Numbered from the stretch's first letter, positions 38,339 through 48,282 are shown. The stretch is DNA of 64,000 nt from Escherichia coli (GCF_036507355.1 NZ_AP027877.1), one strand, 5' to 3'. Notes: generated by a model from the letters alone, not told the origin. A program made the numbers and translations.

Positions 38339-38412
38339 GCGGGCGTAGTTCAATGGTAGAACGAGAGCTTCCCAAGCTCTATACGAGGGTTCGATTCCCT
38401 TCGCCCGCTCCA
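38339..38412 (+). tRNA. glyU: tRNA-Gly (anticodon CCC)
   Basis: gcgggcgtagttcaatggtagaacgagagcttCCCaagctctatacgagggttcgattcccttcgcccgctcca. 74 nt, cloverleaf-compatible, CCA encoded. Confidence 0.95.
38390..38412 (+). repeat. attL core (glyU 3' end)
   Basis: 23 bp identical to 42585-42607. Confidence 0.85.
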
Positions 38413-41157: not shown

Positions 41158-41721
41158 ATGAACAATAAACATAAACATGCAGGTCATATTATCACTATTG
41201 AAGGCCACAGCTTTAAGTCTAATGAGTCTGGCATGTGGAATCTTACAGAAATATGGAAAATCCTCGGATTACCTAACAATAAGCTACCCTCTCAGTGGCG
41301 CGGCAAGGTAACAAAGAGGCTCACCGACATGCAAAAAATGCACGTCGAGAAGATTGGTATTGAAAGCATAACCTACGCAGACAAACAGGCTACCCTCAAG
41401 TATGCAGGATGGGTCTCTGAAGATTTCGAGGACATGGTCTATGCAGCCTTTGAGGCTATCCTTGAGATGCCTGAAGTTGCCACGGTCGTTGCTAATAAGA
41501 TGGTCGAACTTGGCTATCACGCTGAAGCTGAGCTATTGGAACGTCATAAGGACGACTATAGAGAAGCTATGCAGACCCTTAAAAAGATTGGTAAACGTGT
41601 TGACGGCAGGAAGCCTGAGCGCATCTACAAGGCCGTACTTAACGGTAATCTGACGAAATTTCAAGGGTTATCCATGATTTCTCGCAGCAGTGTCTGGTAC
41701 GCCCGAACAGTGAATCTATGA
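41158..41721 (+). CDS. KilA-N-like DNA-binding domain protein (tentative)
   Basis: 187 aa. The N-terminal pattern is ..ITIEGHSFKSNESGMWNLTEIWKILGL..P.QW.. followed by ..TYADKQATLKYAGWVSEDFEDMV.. This resembles the KilA-N/Bro-type fold as I remember it. The C-terminal half is helical and basic. Confidence 0.5.
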   Translation: MNNKHKHAGHIITIEGHSFKSNESGMWNLTEIWKILGLPNNKLPSQWRGKVTKRLTDMQKMHVEKIGIESITYADKQATLKYAGWVSEDFEDMVYAAFEAILEMPEVATVVANKMVELGYHAEAELLERHKDDYREAMQTLKKIGKRVDGRKPERIYKAVLNGNLTKFQGLSMISRSSVWYARTVNL

Positions 41722-42318: not shown

Positions 42319-42584
42319 AAATTTCCCACAAAAATCTCAGTGCCTATCTAACAGTAATAACCCTGCAACATTCCCCCGTATACCTCCAGAAGTTATCCAG
42401 AAGCCGAAGTAGGTATCCTGTCATGTATTTGAATCATCAAAGTTGTTCGTTCTATTCCTCTTTAGGGAATATTACAGCCCTACAGCCTTGACCAGAGATC
42501 ACTTGATGTGTAACCATAACTGTAACCAAAAGGATTCATCATCCTTTAAGAAACAATTGGTTAGTGAGTGATTGTCTTCGATAC

Positions 42585-42607
42585 TTCGATTCCCTTCGCC
42601 CGCTCCA
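42585..42607 (+). repeat. attR of islet 1, and remnant att junction preceding island 2
   Basis: ttcgattcccttcgcccgctcca, identical to the last 23 nt of glyU. Confidence 0.85.
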
Positions 42608-42771: not shown

Positions 42772-43998
42772 ATGAAGCTGACTGCTCGTCAGGTTGAAAC
42801 TGCGAAACCCAAAGAGAAGCCCTACAAACTGGCCGATGGTGGTGGGCTTTACCTGCTGGTTAATCCCAACGGTAAAAGATACTGGCGTCTCAAATACCGT
42901 TCGTTAGGTAAAGAGAAGCTGCTCGCTATTGGCGTTTATCCCGATGTTTCTTTAGCTGAGGCCCGAAGTAAGCGTGAGGATGCTAAAAGAACATTAGCGG
43001 CTGGCAACGATCCCTCTCTTGAACGAAAAATTGAGAAACTTAGTCGTCAACAAGACGCTGAAAACTCGTTTGAGGCTATCACACGGGAGTGGTATCAGCG
43101 TCGCTATGACCGCTGGTCTGTCTCCTACCGCGAAGAAATGCTGAGAACCTTTGAGAAAGATGTATTTCCTTATATCGGTCACAGGCCAATCAAAGATATC
43201 AAGCCGATGGAGTTGCTTGCAGTTCTTTCAAAGATAGAAGCACGAGGGGCAACAGAGAAAGTCCGCAAGGTTCGTCAGCGTTGTGGAGAGGTCTGGAAGT
43301 ATGCCGTTGTGACTGGGAGGGCCGAGTACAATCCAGCACCTGATCTAGCCAGCGCCGTGAGTCCTCATGAGAAAGAGCACTATGCTTTTTTAACCCAGGA
43401 TGAATTGCCTGAGTTTCTTCGGACTCTGAACGCCTATGCCGGTAGTGTGCTTGTTAAGATTGCGATGCAATTGCTCATTTTAACAGGAGTAAGGCCAGGG
43501 GAGTTGAGGCAAGCGGAGTGGCAGGAGTTTGATTTTGAGAAAAAGGTTTGGAATGTACCAGCGGAACGTATGAAAATGCGCCGCCCTCATCTTGTTCCAT
43601 TATCAAGCCAGGCAATTGACCTGCTTAATCAACTTAAACCCATAACGGGAGCAGGAGCGTTATTATTCCCAGGACGTAATAATCCTAAGAAACCGATGAG
43701 CGATATGGCATTGACTGTGTTGGTCAGGCGTATCGGCTATGCCGGGCGCGTTACAGGGCATGGATTCCGCCACACGATGAGTACCATTTTGCATGAGCAG
43801 GGATTCAACTCGGCCTGGATTGAGTTACAGCTGGCTCACGTCGATAAGAACTCAATTCGTGGGACGTATAACCATGCTCAATATTTGGAAGGTCGGCGGG
43901 AGATGATGCAGTGGTATGGAGATTTCATCGGTCAAGCAGGCAAATCCGGATCATCGCTAGCTTATGCAGCTATTAGCTTGACTGCTGAATTAGAGTGA
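42772..43998 (+). CDS. P4-family tyrosine integrase
   Basis: 408 aa. The N-terminus MKLTARQVETAKPKEKPYKLADGGGLYLLVNPNGKRYWRLKYR is typical of the DUF4102 arm-binding domain. Catalytic residues: GVRPGELRQ (R), HGFRHTMST (HxxR), IRGTYNHAQY (Y). Confidence 0.9.
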   Translation: MKLTARQVETAKPKEKPYKLADGGGLYLLVNPNGKRYWRLKYRSLGKEKLLAIGVYPDVSLAEARSKREDAKRTLAAGNDPSLERKIEKLSRQQDAENSFEAITREWYQRRYDRWSVSYREEMLRTFEKDVFPYIGHRPIKDIKPMELLAVLSKIEARGATEKVRKVRQRCGEVWKYAVVTGRAEYNPAPDLASAVSPHEKEHYAFLTQDELPEFLRTLNAYAGSVLVKIAMQLLILTGVRPGELRQAEWQEFDFEKKVWNVPAERMKMRRPHLVPLSSQAIDLLNQLKPITGAGALLFPGRNNPKKPMSDMALTVLVRRIGYAGRVTGHGFRHTMSTILHEQGFNSAWIELQLAHVDKNSIRGTYNHAQYLEGRREMMQWYGDFIGQAGKSGSSLAYAAISLTAELE

Positions 43999-44008
43999 GA
44001 AGGGGCAA

Positions 44009-44039
44009 GTTGAGCCTCTTCGCTGAGAAGAGGCTCAAC
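44009..44039 (+). terminator. Hairpin after the integrase
   Basis: gttgagcctcttc-gctga-gaagaggctcaac, a 13-bp stem. A T7 run lies 10 nt downstream. Confidence 0.5.
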
Positions 44040-44195
44040 GTGAACCTATTTTTTTGGGAGTTAATACTTTTTGCAATTTTTTTTTTCGTGCCGTTGGATG
44101 TAAAGATCTGTGGGGGTTAGGGAAGAAAATCATGCTATGTTAGTCTTTGAGGAGTGAGTCAAAATGTTATAACTTTTTCAAAGAGGCGTTACATC

Positions 44196-45131
44196 GTGAA
44201 AGTCGTTTTTAATGTTAATGGTAAAAAAGTTCCGCTCAAATCTCTGCAATATATAAGTAAAGCAAATCAACTCGAAGTTATGCGGAATTGGTTTTTTGAG
44301 AATTTTGAAGATCCCGCGAACTCTTGCCCGTATGAATCCCGTGAAGGCGGGTATGCTTACATTTATGGGGGCCCATACGAAGCAAGTGAAGAGTTGCAAG
44401 CGATGTTTGAAGGACACGTGAAATTTGATTATATCCAAGAATTAGTCAATGAATTACAAGAACAGTGCTATGAATGGTCTGGTAATTCAAATAATATTAA
44501 TGATTGGTACGATGAAGACTTGTATGATGCTGTTACATCTTCTGAACATCCTTTTTCTAAGTTCGTTGAAAGCATTGATGGAATAAAATTGCTGTCTAAA
44601 GGCGAATTTAAAGATAAACAAAAAGATCATCTGCTTAGCATCCTATATATTAATGTCATTACAGCCCTGGAAACACTTTATGTTGAGTTATTTATTAACT
44701 CTATAGATAAAAACGACTCATATCTTGCTGACTTTATAGAAAAAGGTAAGACGGAATTTAAGGTAAATAAAGGAATATTGGCTTTGCCATTCAAAGGAGA
44801 AACTATTGAAAACATGAGGGCGCAATTAATTAAGGTAATTAAAGAGCATTTGATTAGTGCAAGTTGGCATAGTACAAACAAAGTTGTAGGACGTTATAAA
44901 GCTACATTTGATATAAAAGTACATAAAGAGTGGCCAATAGATGTGATCGAAATAGCAACTCAAAAGCGTAATCATTTAGTCCATCGTGGCGGGAAAGATA
45001 AAGAAGGTAATTCGGTAGTGATTACTGAACAGGATTTAGAAATGTTGCTGGATCACGCACAATCTCTTGGAGAAAAATTGTTTGATAGCCTTGAGGTGGC
45101 ATTACAGAAAAAAGATGAGAATGAATTTTGA
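44196..45131 (+). CDS. Candidate HEPN-domain (Rx4H) protein; the track ORF begins at 44154
   Basis: GTG at 44196 is preceded by aagagg at good spacing. The C-terminal region contains ..ATQKRNHLVHRGGKD.. (R-N-x-x-x-H), the hallmark HEPN RNase motif. The N-terminal domain is unassigned. Confidence 0.4.
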   Translation: MKVVFNVNGKKVPLKSLQYISKANQLEVMRNWFFENFEDPANSCPYESREGGYAYIYGGPYEASEELQAMFEGHVKFDYIQELVNELQEQCYEWSGNSNNINDWYDEDLYDAVTSSEHPFSKFVESIDGIKLLSKGEFKDKQKDHLLSILYINVITALETLYVELFINSIDKNDSYLADFIEKGKTEFKVNKGILALPFKGETIENMRAQLIKVIKEHLISASWHSTNKVVGRYKATFDIKVHKEWPIDVIEIATQKRNHLVHRGGKDKEGNSVVITEQDLEMLLDHAQSLGEKLFDSLEVALQKKDENEF

Positions 45132-45206
45132 GTCTCGGGGTAGGTTGATAGTGCTACCGATAACGAGCAAGCAAATGATACTCGGCAGGCAGTGCCTGCC
45201 GGAGGA

Positions 45207-46910
45207 TTACTTTTTACTTCCAAATTGAATGCCGAGAAGTTTATTCTCTGCTTTATCGCCACGTAGAGTAAGAACAATTTTTGATTTCAGTTCTAACATT
45301 TCGATTTCAGATAAAGTTGTTTCCATAGCATTAAAGTTTTCAGTGTTTAAAGATGCTATATATTGCTTTCCGCTTCGTTTTAATGACTGATTGACAAATG
45401 AGAACCATCTTGCGCGAACACCTGGATCTATATCAGCAAAAAGACGGTTATCATGCCATAGCATATCCATGGCATGGTTTTCACCACATGTAAATACTAA
45501 CCAGTCAAAGCATAATATCCTAGCATCATTGATCCCATCCGAATCATCACCCTCGATTTGGATGCTTAGATCATAACGAATTTTGTTGTCACCAGTATTA
45601 ACATCCAAAACTATTCCTGCTGGTACCCTTGGGTACATTATTTCTGCGAGCTCAGCAAAAATTTTATCGTATTCTGAAAGAGGATTTGTAGAAGCATAGT
45701 TTACCGCTAATCTGTCTTGTTCAACTTTTCGTTCTCTTAGATTTTGAGCTTTCTGTTGAAGGTTAATAGAAAAATTTAAATAATCATGTAACCTTTCTTT
45801 TTCTTCTTTAAATTCAGCTAGTTGTCTAGCTATGACTGCGTATTCATCAAATGCTTTCTTGCCTTGCAGGGATTCCAAATATGAATCACGTAATGCTGAA
45901 ATATCCTTAATGTCAATTTTAAGAGATTCAATTTCTAACAAAAGTTTTACTTTATCATTTTCAAGTCTTTTCTTTCTGTTAAAAGATAATGATTTGTGAA
46001 AATTTTCAACTGACTCAAAATGGGCCAATGTTTCTGGCTTGAAAATCTCTTGTAAGCCATTGTACAGTTCAAGAAGCTCTTCTCTTGAAATGTCAGGGTG
46101 TTCTAATAAAGTTTTTTCTATATTATTTACTTTAAATTCAGCTATATTTTTGTTTTTTTCAACTTCTCGTAATTTTATAGTTAAACTGTTTGTTTCATTC
46201 TCAATAGCTCTGTATTGCTCGTGAACTTGAAATGCATTCAGTTCATCCTGCAGTCTTGGGATCTCTCTTTCTAGCCACTCATAGCGTACTTTAGGTTGAG
46301 AGCCTGCTCTAAACATGTCTTTTAGAATATCATCGTCTTGCCAATTTTTTAGCGATTGACTTACTTTATCCAGCTCTTGCTTATTATTTCTTTTAGATAA
46401 TATTAAATTATGATCTATACCGAGAAGAAATGCGGTACGAAGCAATGCTTCAAAGTCTTGCTCCTTTTTTGTCCTAGTTGGACTGATGCAGTCATCTCTG
46501 GTATATCGCGAAAAACGCTTAAATAAAGATCTGAATGATAAATACGGAATGTTATTCTCAAGATTAAATATTCCTATTTTATCTAATAAATCTTTAAATG
46601 CTTTTAAAGATATTGTTTTGTCATTTAATAATAATTTTTTTCCATTGCCCGTTCTAGATATTAAGTACTCAACTCCATTATGAGAAAAAAGTAAAGAGAA
46701 CCACCAATCTGGAACTGCTGAAGTTAATTTTTTATCAGCATTAGCTCCTAAACAATGTTGAATGAGACCGAGAATAAGTGTCTTACCGACTCCGTTACTA
46801 CTGCCTTCTTTTTCTTTAGAGCTATCACCAATGATCAACGTTAGTCCTGTATCATTGAAATGCACTGGATGAAAAGTTGGCTGATCGCAAGTTAAGCGAA
46901 TTAACTTCAT
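45207..46910 (-). CDS. SMC/ABC-type ATPase with coiled-coil insert (LmuB / ABC-3C ATPase-like, DUF2326-like)
   Basis: 567 aa. Walker A is SSNGVGKT. There is a long K/E-rich coiled-coil middle, and the C-terminal block is ..DDSDGINDARILCFDWL... Its start codon abuts the stop of the upstream small ORF (taaATG). Confidence 0.6.
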   Translation of the reverse strand: MKLIRLTCDQPTFHPVHFNDTGLTLIIGDSSKEKEGSSNGVGKTLILGLIQHCLGANADKKLTSAVPDWWFSLLFSHNGVEYLISRTGNGKKLLLNDKTISLKAFKDLLDKIGIFNLENNIPYLSFRSLFKRFSRYTRDDCISPTRTKKEQDFEALLRTAFLLGIDHNLILSKRNNKQELDKVSQSLKNWQDDDILKDMFRAGSQPKVRYEWLEREIPRLQDELNAFQVHEQYRAIENETNSLTIKLREVEKNKNIAEFKVNNIEKTLLEHPDISREELLELYNGLQEIFKPETLAHFESVENFHKSLSFNRKKRLENDKVKLLLEIESLKIDIKDISALRDSYLESLQGKKAFDEYAVIARQLAEFKEEKERLHDYLNFSINLQQKAQNLRERKVEQDRLAVNYASTNPLSEYDKIFAELAEIMYPRVPAGIVLDVNTGDNKIRYDLSIQIEGDDSDGINDARILCFDWLVFTCGENHAMDMLWHDNRLFADIDPGVRARWFSFVNQSLKRSGKQYIASLNTENFNAMETTLSEIEMLELKSKIVLTLRGDKAENKLLGIQFGSKK

Positions 46911-47216
46911 TTAACTTTCCTTATTTTTTAATTTGTCATAATTGCAACAGATTGGCATTATTCTGTTTTCATTATCTAGCGTTATTTGTTTGATGCAAAA
47001 AAGAATGTCTACGGCAAGTATAAATTGTGTAAAAGAGGGCGTGATTATCGTTGATTTATTTTTCCGCTCTATTTTTGTCCATAGTTCTTCTATGGATACC
47101 GGTCCATCAATTAACGAACGGATGTATCCTGCAATCGCAATTAGGGAGTTACTAAACCTAACATGCTTATGTGGCAGAAGCATTGCTTGGATGTTCATAA
47201 GCATCACATGTCTCAA
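46911..47216 (-). CDS. Small middle-component-like protein (LmuC / ABC-3C MC-like); possibly the 3' part of a frameshifted ~148-codon gene
   Basis: 101-aa ORF with a TTG start, translationally coupled to the ATPase. A 62-aa ORF in another frame (47167..47355) fills the gap back to the upstream gene. Confidence 0.4.
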   Translation of the reverse strand: MRHVMLMNIQAMLLPHKHVRFSNSLIAIAGYIRSLIDGPVSIEELWTKIERKNKSTIITPSFTQFILAVDILFCIKQITLDNENRIMPICCNYDKLKNKES

Positions 47217-47390
47217 AATATTTAGCTAAAATTAACTCTGCAGCAAATCGATAACTCGCGACCGCACTTGTGGGAACTTGCGGGGGAAGGAGTTTATCTA
47301 TCATCCAAGTATATCTTAAATCTGCATAATTGTGGTTATCTTCAGTTATCGCCAATTTACTTTTTGCATAAGTATCTCTAACTTCTTGAG

Positions 47391-48173
47391 CTATAGTTTG
47401 TTCAAGACCACAAGACCATTATCAACAGAATCTAAAAATTCATTTATCAAATATAGTTGATAGCTAAAAGATTCCAGCCTGCTTTTTATTGGTTTTGTAA
47501 TACCATTTATTTTTATTTTATCTTCGAAGTCCGGGGCTGTTTCACTTAAAAAATTCATGGGTGAAGAAGATTTTTGTGCTAAAAAAGTCAATACTTCACC
47601 AACAGCTCGAGTATCTGTAAAGTCTAAATTAACCTCAGGAATGAAACCTACAATATCTTGCTTTTCACCCTCGGATAATGACATAAACTTTTGAAGGAGC
47701 TCCATCCCACCCATTGCACCTGCGTGATTAAGACTTTTACTGATTGCAAGTGTATTTAATGAAAGTCCAACAGGTGCTGGAATACCCTTGAAATAATCAT
47801 TCATTACAAAAGTATATTTTGATACTTTCCCCCATTTGGCGACTAATTTATCAAAGTCGCCAATCGATTTATTAACAGCTTCTAGCTCTTTGGTTTGATT
47901 TGAAGGTTTAGGTCCATAAACTTGGAAGTAATGAGCCTCATGAGCAATCCACCCATCATTCCCGCCATCTCCCCAGTTTCCCCAAGGGGAAACAGCTTGA
48001 AAGCCAGGAGTCGCGTATTGCATAACCTTCGAAAAAAGCGCCTGAAAACTGTCTCCCATACATTCATGTACTTTTAACCGAAAGAACTGTCTGTAGAGGT
48101 AATCTTGCTGTGTCGAACTCATTTTCCTCTCATCCATGATGAACACTTTTGATGATAATATCCTCTCATTCAT
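47391..48173 (-). CDS. Putative effector of the three-gene system, with an N-terminal Mrr-like PD-(D/E)xK motif (LmuA-like); start may be M18
   Basis: 260 aa. The GNWGDGGNDGWI motif resembles the GDGGIDG motif of the Mrr catalytic domain. The C-terminal half is helical. It is the first gene of the operon. Confidence 0.4.
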   Translation of the reverse strand: MNERILSSKVFIMDERKMSSTQQDYLYRQFFRLKVHECMGDSFQALFSKVMQYATPGFQAVSPWGNWGDGGNDGWIAHEAHYFQVYGPKPSNQTKELEAVNKSIGDFDKLVAKWGKVSKYTFVMNDYFKGIPAPVGLSLNTLAISKSLNHAGAMGGMELLQKFMSLSEGEKQDIVGFIPEVNLDFTDTRAVGEVLTFLAQKSSSPMNFLSETAPDFEDKIKINGITKPIKSRLESFSYQLYLINEFLDSVDNGLVVLNKL

Positions 48174-48282
48174 TGTTGTAAACCTATGATTAGCAAAATT
48201 GGAGATGCTTTCACTTTAGAGTTGGTATCTAAAGGTTATAAATTATCAAAACAGGTTGTATAGATATCAAATTGAATACGAT

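Follow-up and report, generated by a model that had tools for sequence, protein, structure and literature searches.

A stand-alone NTD1–HEPN protein on an Escherichia coli genomic island is a candidate abortive-infection RNase

The gene of interest was found in a 64,000-nucleotide stretch of the Escherichia coli sequence NZ_AP027877.1 (assembly GCF_036507355.1; this whole stretch is called "the window" throughout), on an island headed by an integrase gene. It encodes a 311-amino-acid protein consisting of (i) an N-terminal HEPN/RES-NTD1 domain (Pfam PF18870; hereafter NTD1), and (ii) a C-terminal half that very probably forms a HEPN domain whose catalytic motif is intact. The gene is under purifying selection, has no partner gene, and is carried by mobile elements of several kinds. 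We consider it probable that the product is a self-sufficient, infection-activated RNase that provides defence of the abortive-infection type, with NTD1 as its regulator or sensor.

A conserved Rx4H motif and a HEPN fold in the C-terminal half

The initial annotation of the window had picked out an RNxxxH motif in this protein and, on the strength of it, tentatively called a HEPN domain, with the caution that the motif is short. The motif is present as R258-N-H-L-V-H263, in the peptide IATQKRNHLVHRGGKDKEG confirmed in the open reading frame (ORF; R258 codon 44967–44969, H263 codon 44982–44984). The caution is also borne out: counted in stop-free segments of at least 100 amino acids of the window, the chance frequency per 311 amino acids is 0.68 for Rx4H (i.e., about 0.7 occurrences in a protein of this length), 0.15 for R[NDH]x3H, and 0.034 for RNx3H. 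The motif is significant because it is conserved across relatives, not by itself. In an alignment of 42 relatives with identities down to 27%, H263 is found in 42/42 sequences and R258 in 41/42, the residue after the arginine is N or H in 41/42, and the motif extends as H-R-x-G-[KR] (R264 in 41/42, G266 in 42/42). E159 and W224-H225 are invariant in the same alignment. The HEPN superfamily is recognized by a conserved Rx4-6H motif with a polar residue (N, D or H) after the arginine, and R258-N-H-L-V-H263 has this form.

Profile searches, proposed as a check on the initial call, gave a divided answer. The window protein itself reaches no Pfam HEPN model and has no match in NCBIfam, while 23 of the 42 full-length relatives match PF18735 (RiboL-PSP-HEPN) at E ≤ 0.01 (best 7.1e-11; the window protein contributes none of these matches). 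A large protein collection contains 117 homologues of the window protein; the distant ones (29–40% identity over 67–95% coverage, E 1e-26 to 1e-50) carry PF18735, PF18870 or both among their precomputed domains, and one is named "RiboL-PSP-HEPN domain-containing protein" in its source. An extra segment of ~20 residues, VNKGILALPFKGETIENMRAQ, lies within the HEPN domain (residues ~190–212, about 44763–44831); it is present in the enterobacterial and Aeromonas clade and absent from the distant relatives, and may be one reason why the Pfam HEPN model misses the window protein.

Structure prediction, the other check proposed, places the motif in the canonical position. The model contains a four-helix up-down bundle resembling solved HEPN domains, in which E159 sits in a long helix (residues 140–170) and R258–H263 forms the C-terminal end of helix 3 (248–263), from which a loop or hairpin leads into the last helix (278–305). 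The end of helix 3 is also where the Rx4-6H motif lies in HEPN domains (PMC3710099). Solved HEPN structures compared with the model have listed values of 11.7 (TT1696, 1ufb), 11.0 (YutE, 1ylm), 10.9 (HEPN toxin, 8xdj; Sacsin HEPN, 3o10), 10.8 (SO_3166, 5yep; AF0298, 2hsb), 8.9 (Csm6, 6tug), 8.8 (Csx1, 8y7f), 8.4 (LsoA, 5hy3), and 7.5 (Las1, 7y18). Searches of the PDB by sequence returned spurious matches only (eL20 and TSR3), whether the query was the protein or the family profile. The tentative HEPN call is thus supported by PF18735 in 23/42 relatives, by the conserved motif, and by its position at the end of helix 3.

NTD1 is the best-conserved part of the protein

The N-terminal ~200 residues had been left unassigned. 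This stands in part only: residues 27–92 give the protein its one Pfam match, to the known NTD1 family (E 4.5e-5; 24.2 bits, against a gathering cut-off of 27.4), and the same family is matched by 39 of the 42 relatives at E ≤ 0.01. Three other NTD1-bearing proteins score above the cut-off (P0114, 29.0 bits; P0115, 28.7 bits; L132, 29.3 bits). Residues 1–100 are the best-conserved region of the window protein. Identity to distant relatives is 55% in NTD1 versus 28% in the HEPN part, and NTD1 holds 26 of the 40 positions that are conserved at ≥90%. Such conservation fits a conserved cue better than a variable phage protein.

NTD1 is also found on other effectors. Fusions of it to RES and HEPN domains, and now and then to an ABC ATPase, have been described (PMC3710099), and in P0115 it is joined to a PIN_8 nuclease. 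No RES domain was matched in the window protein (Pfam). An NTD-only profile search of the protein collection gave at least 120 matches; those listed are all short proteins (≤175 amino acids), with no NTD1–RES protein among them. A tblastn search of an NTD against plasmids found no RES-annotated gene. In eight IMG/VR contigs (L132, L133, L134, L136, L137, L138, L141 and L143), NTD1 is followed by a C-terminal module that Pfam leaves unassigned. A G[IM]GHNxPPE motif is conserved in this module, and its C-terminal stretch is hydrophobic, in many cases with PF as the last residues. This module may be a membrane-active effector on NTD1.

An intact gene under purifying selection

The stand-alone ORF of ~310 residues in the initial annotation was correct: it is intact and 311 codons long (Table 1). 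RefSeq PGAP gene models in E. coli relatives use the identical start and label the near-identical genes "hypothetical protein", and homologues share the start methionine in the alignment. An alternative, longer GTG start at 44154 lacks usable Shine-Dalgarno spacing. Ratios of non-synonymous to synonymous substitution rates (dN/dS) are 0.24, 0.08 and 0.10 in pairwise comparisons with relatives at 98%, 91% and 79% DNA identity, respectively, with no internal stops. Because of these ratios (0.08–0.24) and the absence of stops, we regard the gene as a maintained protein-coding gene under purifying selection. The protein matches phrog_17908 of the PHROG collection (E 2.7e-153), a family listed as of "unknown function".

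Table 1. Features of the NTD1–HEPN gene and its surroundings, in window coordinates
Feature	Position	Strand	Detail
Coding sequence of the 311-aa NTD1–HEPN protein	44196..45131	+	GTG start, TGA stop; intact ORF, 311 codons
N-terminal HEPN/RES-NTD1 domain (PF18870), residues 1–100	44196..44495	+	motif WFxxNFEDPxxxxPYESREGGYxYIYGGPYxAxEEL
C-terminal HEPN domain, roughly residues 139–305	44610..45110	+	helical bundle with invariant E159, W224-H225, R258, H263
Predicted catalytic motif R258-N-H-L-V-H263 (Rx4H), then R264-G-G266-K	44967..44984	+	sequence, column counts, helix position
Shine-Dalgarno-like AAGAGG	44181..44186	+	9 nt before the GTG start; read from the sequence
Upstream leader/promoter region, travels with the gene	44126..44195	+	shared with L089 and L091, otherwise unrelated loci
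Hairpin of 10 bp past the integrase stop, possible terminator	44012..44036	+	read from the sequence
GC-rich, terminator-like hairpin where the HEPN and DUF2326 genes converge	45183..45201	.	terminator scan: 8 pairs, 7 GC
P4-type tyrosine integrase of the carrying island (context)	42772..43998	+	Pfam Arm-DNA-bind_3, Phage_int_M, Phage_integrase
Convergent three-gene ABC-3C/Lamassu-like operon (DUF2326 ABC ATPase, MC6, third component; context)	45207..48173	-	Pfam DUF2326, MC6

The gene has no recurrent partner

A scan of one genome per species identified 363 stretches that encode relatives, distributed over many phyla; the best 80 of these 363 loci were taken into a comparison of neighbouring genes, in which ORFs were called in all loci (83) and clustered by BLASTP. 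The HEPN family itself is found in 82 loci, and the next commonest families are integrases, in eight and four loci. ABC-3C gene clusters are confined to three closely related E. coli loci (L001–L003). The immediate neighbours of the HEPN gene vary in size, spacing and orientation, and the most frequent Pfam family among 112 flanking proteins occurs no more than three times. The absence of a recurrent neighbour across ~80 species-level loci supports the single-gene reading put forward in the initial annotation.

Several specific kinds of partner were looked for. Neither MNT nor any other nucleotidyltransferase is among the recurrent Pfam families of the 112 flanking genes, and the window gene is bordered by an integrase and a convergent ABC ATPase rather than by the MNT gene expected of a HEPN–MNT type VII toxin–antitoxin pair. 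Near the gene there are no tandem repeats (Tandem Repeats Finder, minimum score 30) and Rfam matches fall far below gathering scores, i.e., there is neither the repeat array nor the structured RNA of a type III or AbiF-like RNA antitoxin. The 197-bp upstream gap holds only short, unconserved ORFs. Nor does the gene share an operon with the ATPase, as an effector of a Lamassu/ABC-3C system would: the two are on opposite strands, separated by a hairpin, and the link is limited to one island lineage.

Homology between the window and loci of Yersinia, Aeromonas and three IMG/VR contigs covers the gene and at most 70 bp upstream; in L089 and L091 it begins at 44126 and 44134, respectively, and ends at the stop codon of the HEPN gene. 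The integrase–HEPN–ABC-3C block is common to the window and only one IMG/VR contig. Because homology stops at the gene borders, the HEPN gene behaves as a one-gene cassette. The hairpin at 44012–44036 lies too far from its T-run to have been called by the terminator scan; if it is a terminator, it would keep the transcripts of the integrase and HEPN genes apart.

Islands, plasmids and prophages carry the gene

The window allele is sporadic in E. coli, being found in six of 5,426 complete genomes. In all six, a P4-type integrase at tRNA-Gly or tRNA-Thr precedes the gene and the ABC-3C operon comes after it; beyond lies the ars operon, which two of the annotated loci have intact and a third has disrupted. 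The island of the closest relative has a CP4-like backbone (YfjJ, GTPase, DUF932, antirestriction, RadC, YeeU/CbtA). A 71%-identical paralogue (WP_014639476, 320 amino acids) is encoded by 209 of the 5,426 E. coli genomes, UTI89 among them. It occupies a slot for accessory genes in a lambdoid prophage, flanked by the replication genes on one side and hokD on the other. With this paralogue included, NTD1–HEPN proteins are encoded by ~4% of complete E. coli genomes. Relatives are also carried by 28 plasmids, 15 of them conjugative. Another 76 loci come from IMG/VR, where genes for terminase, portal, head protease, integrase and replication lie no more than three genes away. When 1.84 billion cluster representatives (50% identity) were searched with the family profile, there were 3,553 matches at E ≤ 1e-3 and 802 at E ≤ 1e-30, nearly all 280–320 amino acids long and aligned over their full length. 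Genes flanking the relatives match many PADLOC defence models, each singly: restriction-modification components, PDC-S05, PD-T7-5, LmuA, SoFic, and capP.

Three observations concern particular relatives. Firstly, a co-oriented gene for a 333-amino-acid protein lies 15 bp downstream of the paralogue (L084, 6001–7980; L086, 7001–8980; UTI89 prophage). This protein has a weak C-terminal GNAT match (E 9e-4) and belongs to phrog_16994, and its gene also follows the HEPN gene in Serratia grimesii (L007); the pair may be a two-gene variant of the system. Secondly, in Yersinia alsatica (L004, 5338–6699), as well as in L089, a 453-amino-acid ApeA_NTD1 protein (E 2.2e-8) is encoded on the opposite strand, directly upstream of an NTD1–HEPN relative. 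ApeA being a further defence family of the HEPN type, these loci hold two distinct solo HEPN proteins next to each other. Thirdly, nearby D5/P4-alpha-like genes raised the idea that relatives sit in the P4-satellite hotspot; this placement was not established, the published hotspot being the psu–int interval.

Comparison with described systems

The NTD1–HEPN architecture was described in silico in 2013 (Anantharaman et al., Biol Direct 8:15; PMC3710099), with KPK_1764 of Klebsiella pneumoniae 342 as an example, and the window protein therefore belongs to an already predicted kind. The layout is the same: an NTD1 of ~100 amino acids and a C-terminal Rx4H HEPN domain in a protein of ~300 residues, encoded alone in conflict loci. 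Its counterparts in current databases are PF18870 plus PF18735 in Pfam and the PGAP name 'HEPN-associated N-terminal domain-containing protein', which one plasmid relative carries. The match has limits. The window protein scores below both curated Pfam cut-offs, its enterobacterial clade adds the insert of ~20 amino acids, and the published description is itself a prediction; furthermore, the 2013 paper puts the fused HEPN domain in the MAE_18760/MAE_28990 group, while relatives of the window protein match RiboL-PSP-HEPN instead. Such N-terminal domains were proposed to act as sensor or antitoxin, recognizing viral components by binding and holding the suicide nuclease at the C-terminus in check (PMC3710099).

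Proteins studied since provide several points of comparison. aRES (Osterman et al., bioRxiv 10.64898/2026.01.28.702374) combines PF18870 with a RES domain and is an experimentally validated stand-alone defence that causes growth arrest. Like the window protein, it is a solo two-domain protein with a PF18870 N-terminus, encoded in defence islands and lacking operon partners. The effector differs: aRES uses a RES NAD+ phosphorylase, and the window protein, in which no RES domain is detected, is aRES-like in layout but not a member. HepS (Sargen et al., Nature 2026; PMC13043305) is a prophage-borne solo HEPN abortive-infection protein with neither a partner gene nor an inhibitor gene. By default it is inactive; once a phage tail-tip protein has allosterically opened the active site, HepS cuts tRNA anticodon loops. 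Its prophage slot, after the replication genes, is of the same kind as that of the 71% paralogue in UTI89. The window protein shows no detectable homology to HepS, a solo HEPN protein of <250 amino acids with R100-H105. DARNA (PD-T7-3) and ApeA are HEPN tRNases with a separate, non-catalytic sensing domain in the same polypeptide, and bring about abortive infection by tRNA anticodon cleavage. DARNA has features of its own, namely an N-terminal HEPN domain, a Pds5-like C-terminal domain, a dodecameric form and a single-stranded DNA trigger, and ApeA uses ApeA-NTD1. In sequence, HepS, DARNA and ApeA are analogues rather than family members, the HEPN half of the window protein having no detectable homology to them. 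Lastly, HEPN–MNT (HepT/MntA) has a minimal HEPN protein of ~130 amino acids and needs an adjacent MNT antitoxin, whereas the window protein has no such neighbour and an additional NTD1.

The results on aRES, HepS and DARNA/ApeA make the 2013 proposal more credible. They likewise strengthen the abortive-infection reading of the window protein, aRES through the shared N-terminal domain.

Proposed mode of action

HEPN domains usually dimerise, bringing two Rx4H motifs together in a single RNase site, which needs no metal and generates RNA ends with a 2',3'-cyclic phosphate. Under the reading we favour, the C-terminal HEPN domain of the window protein would be the effector RNase, acting as a dimer. 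NTD1 would silence the nuclease in uninfected cells and release it upon an infection cue; RNA cleavage would then arrest translation and growth, such that the phage cannot multiply. By analogy with the solo HEPN defence proteins that have been studied, the most probable substrates would be tRNA anticodon loops or mRNA, with anticodon loops in particular put forward only tentatively. The gene has its own upstream region and terminator-like hairpins, and moves as a one-gene cassette among islands, plasmids and prophages.

A number of results weigh against this proposal. On the side of the effector, Pfam HEPN models do not match the window protein even at E up to 10, and a Foldseek search of the model against the PDB gave nothing at E ≤ 1e-3. 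The PADLOC models, which cover the PD-T systems, gave no match. NTD1 scores below its Pfam cut-off and no solved counterpart was found for its fold. That NTD1 is far more strongly conserved than the effector is unusual for a sensor of fast-evolving phage proteins. The link to aRES is one of shared Pfam family, not of direct alignment to the aRES sequence. The promoter scan called no consensus sigma-70 promoter on the + strand upstream of the gene, and no experimental paper on an NTD1–HEPN protein was found in the literature searched.

Three other explanations were weighed. The protein could have no role in phage defence, being instead a factor in the competition or maintenance of mobile elements, or an RNA-processing or nucleotide-binding protein whose HEPN site might serve the element's own regulated RNA turnover. 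The unusual conservation of NTD1 would suit binding of a conserved cellular ligand, and some HEPN domains are non-catalytic binders (PMC3710099). We nevertheless judge this improbable: the catalytic arginine and histidine are kept across phyla, the distribution is patchy and tied to mobile elements, neighbouring genes are enriched for defence genes, and NTD1 on a RES domain yields phage defence. Still less probable is that the protein is the toxin of a toxin–antitoxin pair whose antitoxin—a small protein, an MNT-type nucleotidyltransferase, or an AbiF/type III RNA—was missed, and that it stabilises the island rather than acting against phage. No adjacent gene family recurs in the ~80 species-level loci, where flanking genes vary in size and orientation; there is no nucleotidyltransferase among the recurrent families, the searches for repeats, notable Rfam matches and conserved small ORFs in the upstream gap were all negative, and homology between contexts ends at the gene borders.

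The least probable of the three, and very unlikely in our view, is that the adjacent ABC-3C/Lamassu-like system uses the protein as an accessory or alternative effector, which would work only with the ABC ATPase of that system. The integrase–HEPN–ABC-3C block is indeed kept in 6/6 E. coli genomes with the allele and in one IMG/VR contig. Against this, the convergent genes face each other across a hairpin, ABC-3C clusters are missing beside relatives in Yersinia, Aeromonas, Serratia and other phyla as well as from the prophage that houses the 71% paralogue, and in the window the third ABC-3C gene is frameshifted while the HEPN ORF is intact. A functional link between the HEPN gene and the ABC-3C operon was rejected on strand, terminator, missing co-occurrence elsewhere, and the frameshift.

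Within the abortive-infection reading, NTD1 could conceivably have a wider part, although we think this rather unlikely: it may be a portable sensor of a conserved, phage-independent cue (a nucleic-acid species, a small molecule, or an infection-altered host factor), and not of a variable phage protein, that drives at least four unrelated killing modules, namely the HEPN RNase, the RES NADase of aRES, the PIN_8 nuclease, and the GHNxPPE-motif module with its hydrophobic tail. The window protein would then be the RNase arm of an aRES-like superfamily, and a new way of sensing would lie behind both the extreme conservation of NTD1 and its orphan fold. Taken alone, the window gene is an ordinary, already-catalogued type of defence-island cargo. 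Solo HEPN proteins (HepS, DARNA, ApeA) and the NTD1–RES protein aRES have only recently been established as complete defence systems. Should the window protein prove to be defensive, thousands of "hypothetical proteins" would gain an annotation from this single addition, and a second effector on NTD1 would provide an ideal pair for working out what NTD1 detects.

The surrounding island

The gene had been described as AT-rich and as lying in a defence island between an integrase and a Lamassu-like operon. Its composition agrees with this (GC content 0.31–0.39 over 44000–48200, versus about 0.5 in the flanks), as does its position, with the integrase on one side and the ABC-3C operon on the other. 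The naming of the operon needs refinement: it is Lamassu-like, but more precisely an ABC-3C system with MC6 and DUF2326, for which the best PADLOC match is PDC-M68B (7.7e-73) and those to LmuB (1.5e-4) and LmuA (5e-3) are weak. Its third gene (47167–48173, - strand) contains an 8-bp tandem duplication, TGGTCTTG TGGTCTTG, at about 47411–47418. The resulting frameshift ends the ORF after 260 amino acids, versus an intact 315 in E. coli NZ_OZ197100, and the ABC-3C system is for this reason probably inactive in the window strain.

Two elements have integrated in tandem at tRNA-Gly(ccc) (38339–38412). A 25-nt copy of the 3' end of the tRNA gene, with two mismatches, lies at 42583–42607, and the tRNA and this attachment-site copy bracket an element of ~4.2 kb that carries a 543-amino-acid integrase and a KilA-N-like gene (41158–41721; weak PADLOC match to PD-T4-2_B, E 1.3e-4). 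The island that bears the HEPN gene begins past the second attachment-site copy. E. coli NZ_OZ197100 (L164, 4309–6577), the closest relative within the species, pairs a DUF4145 protein with a 544-amino-acid site-specific integrase akin to the 543-amino-acid one of the window; the two lie away from the tRNA, at the opposite extremity of the island, and DUF4145 is listed as a HEPN family by Anantharaman et al. (PMC3710099).
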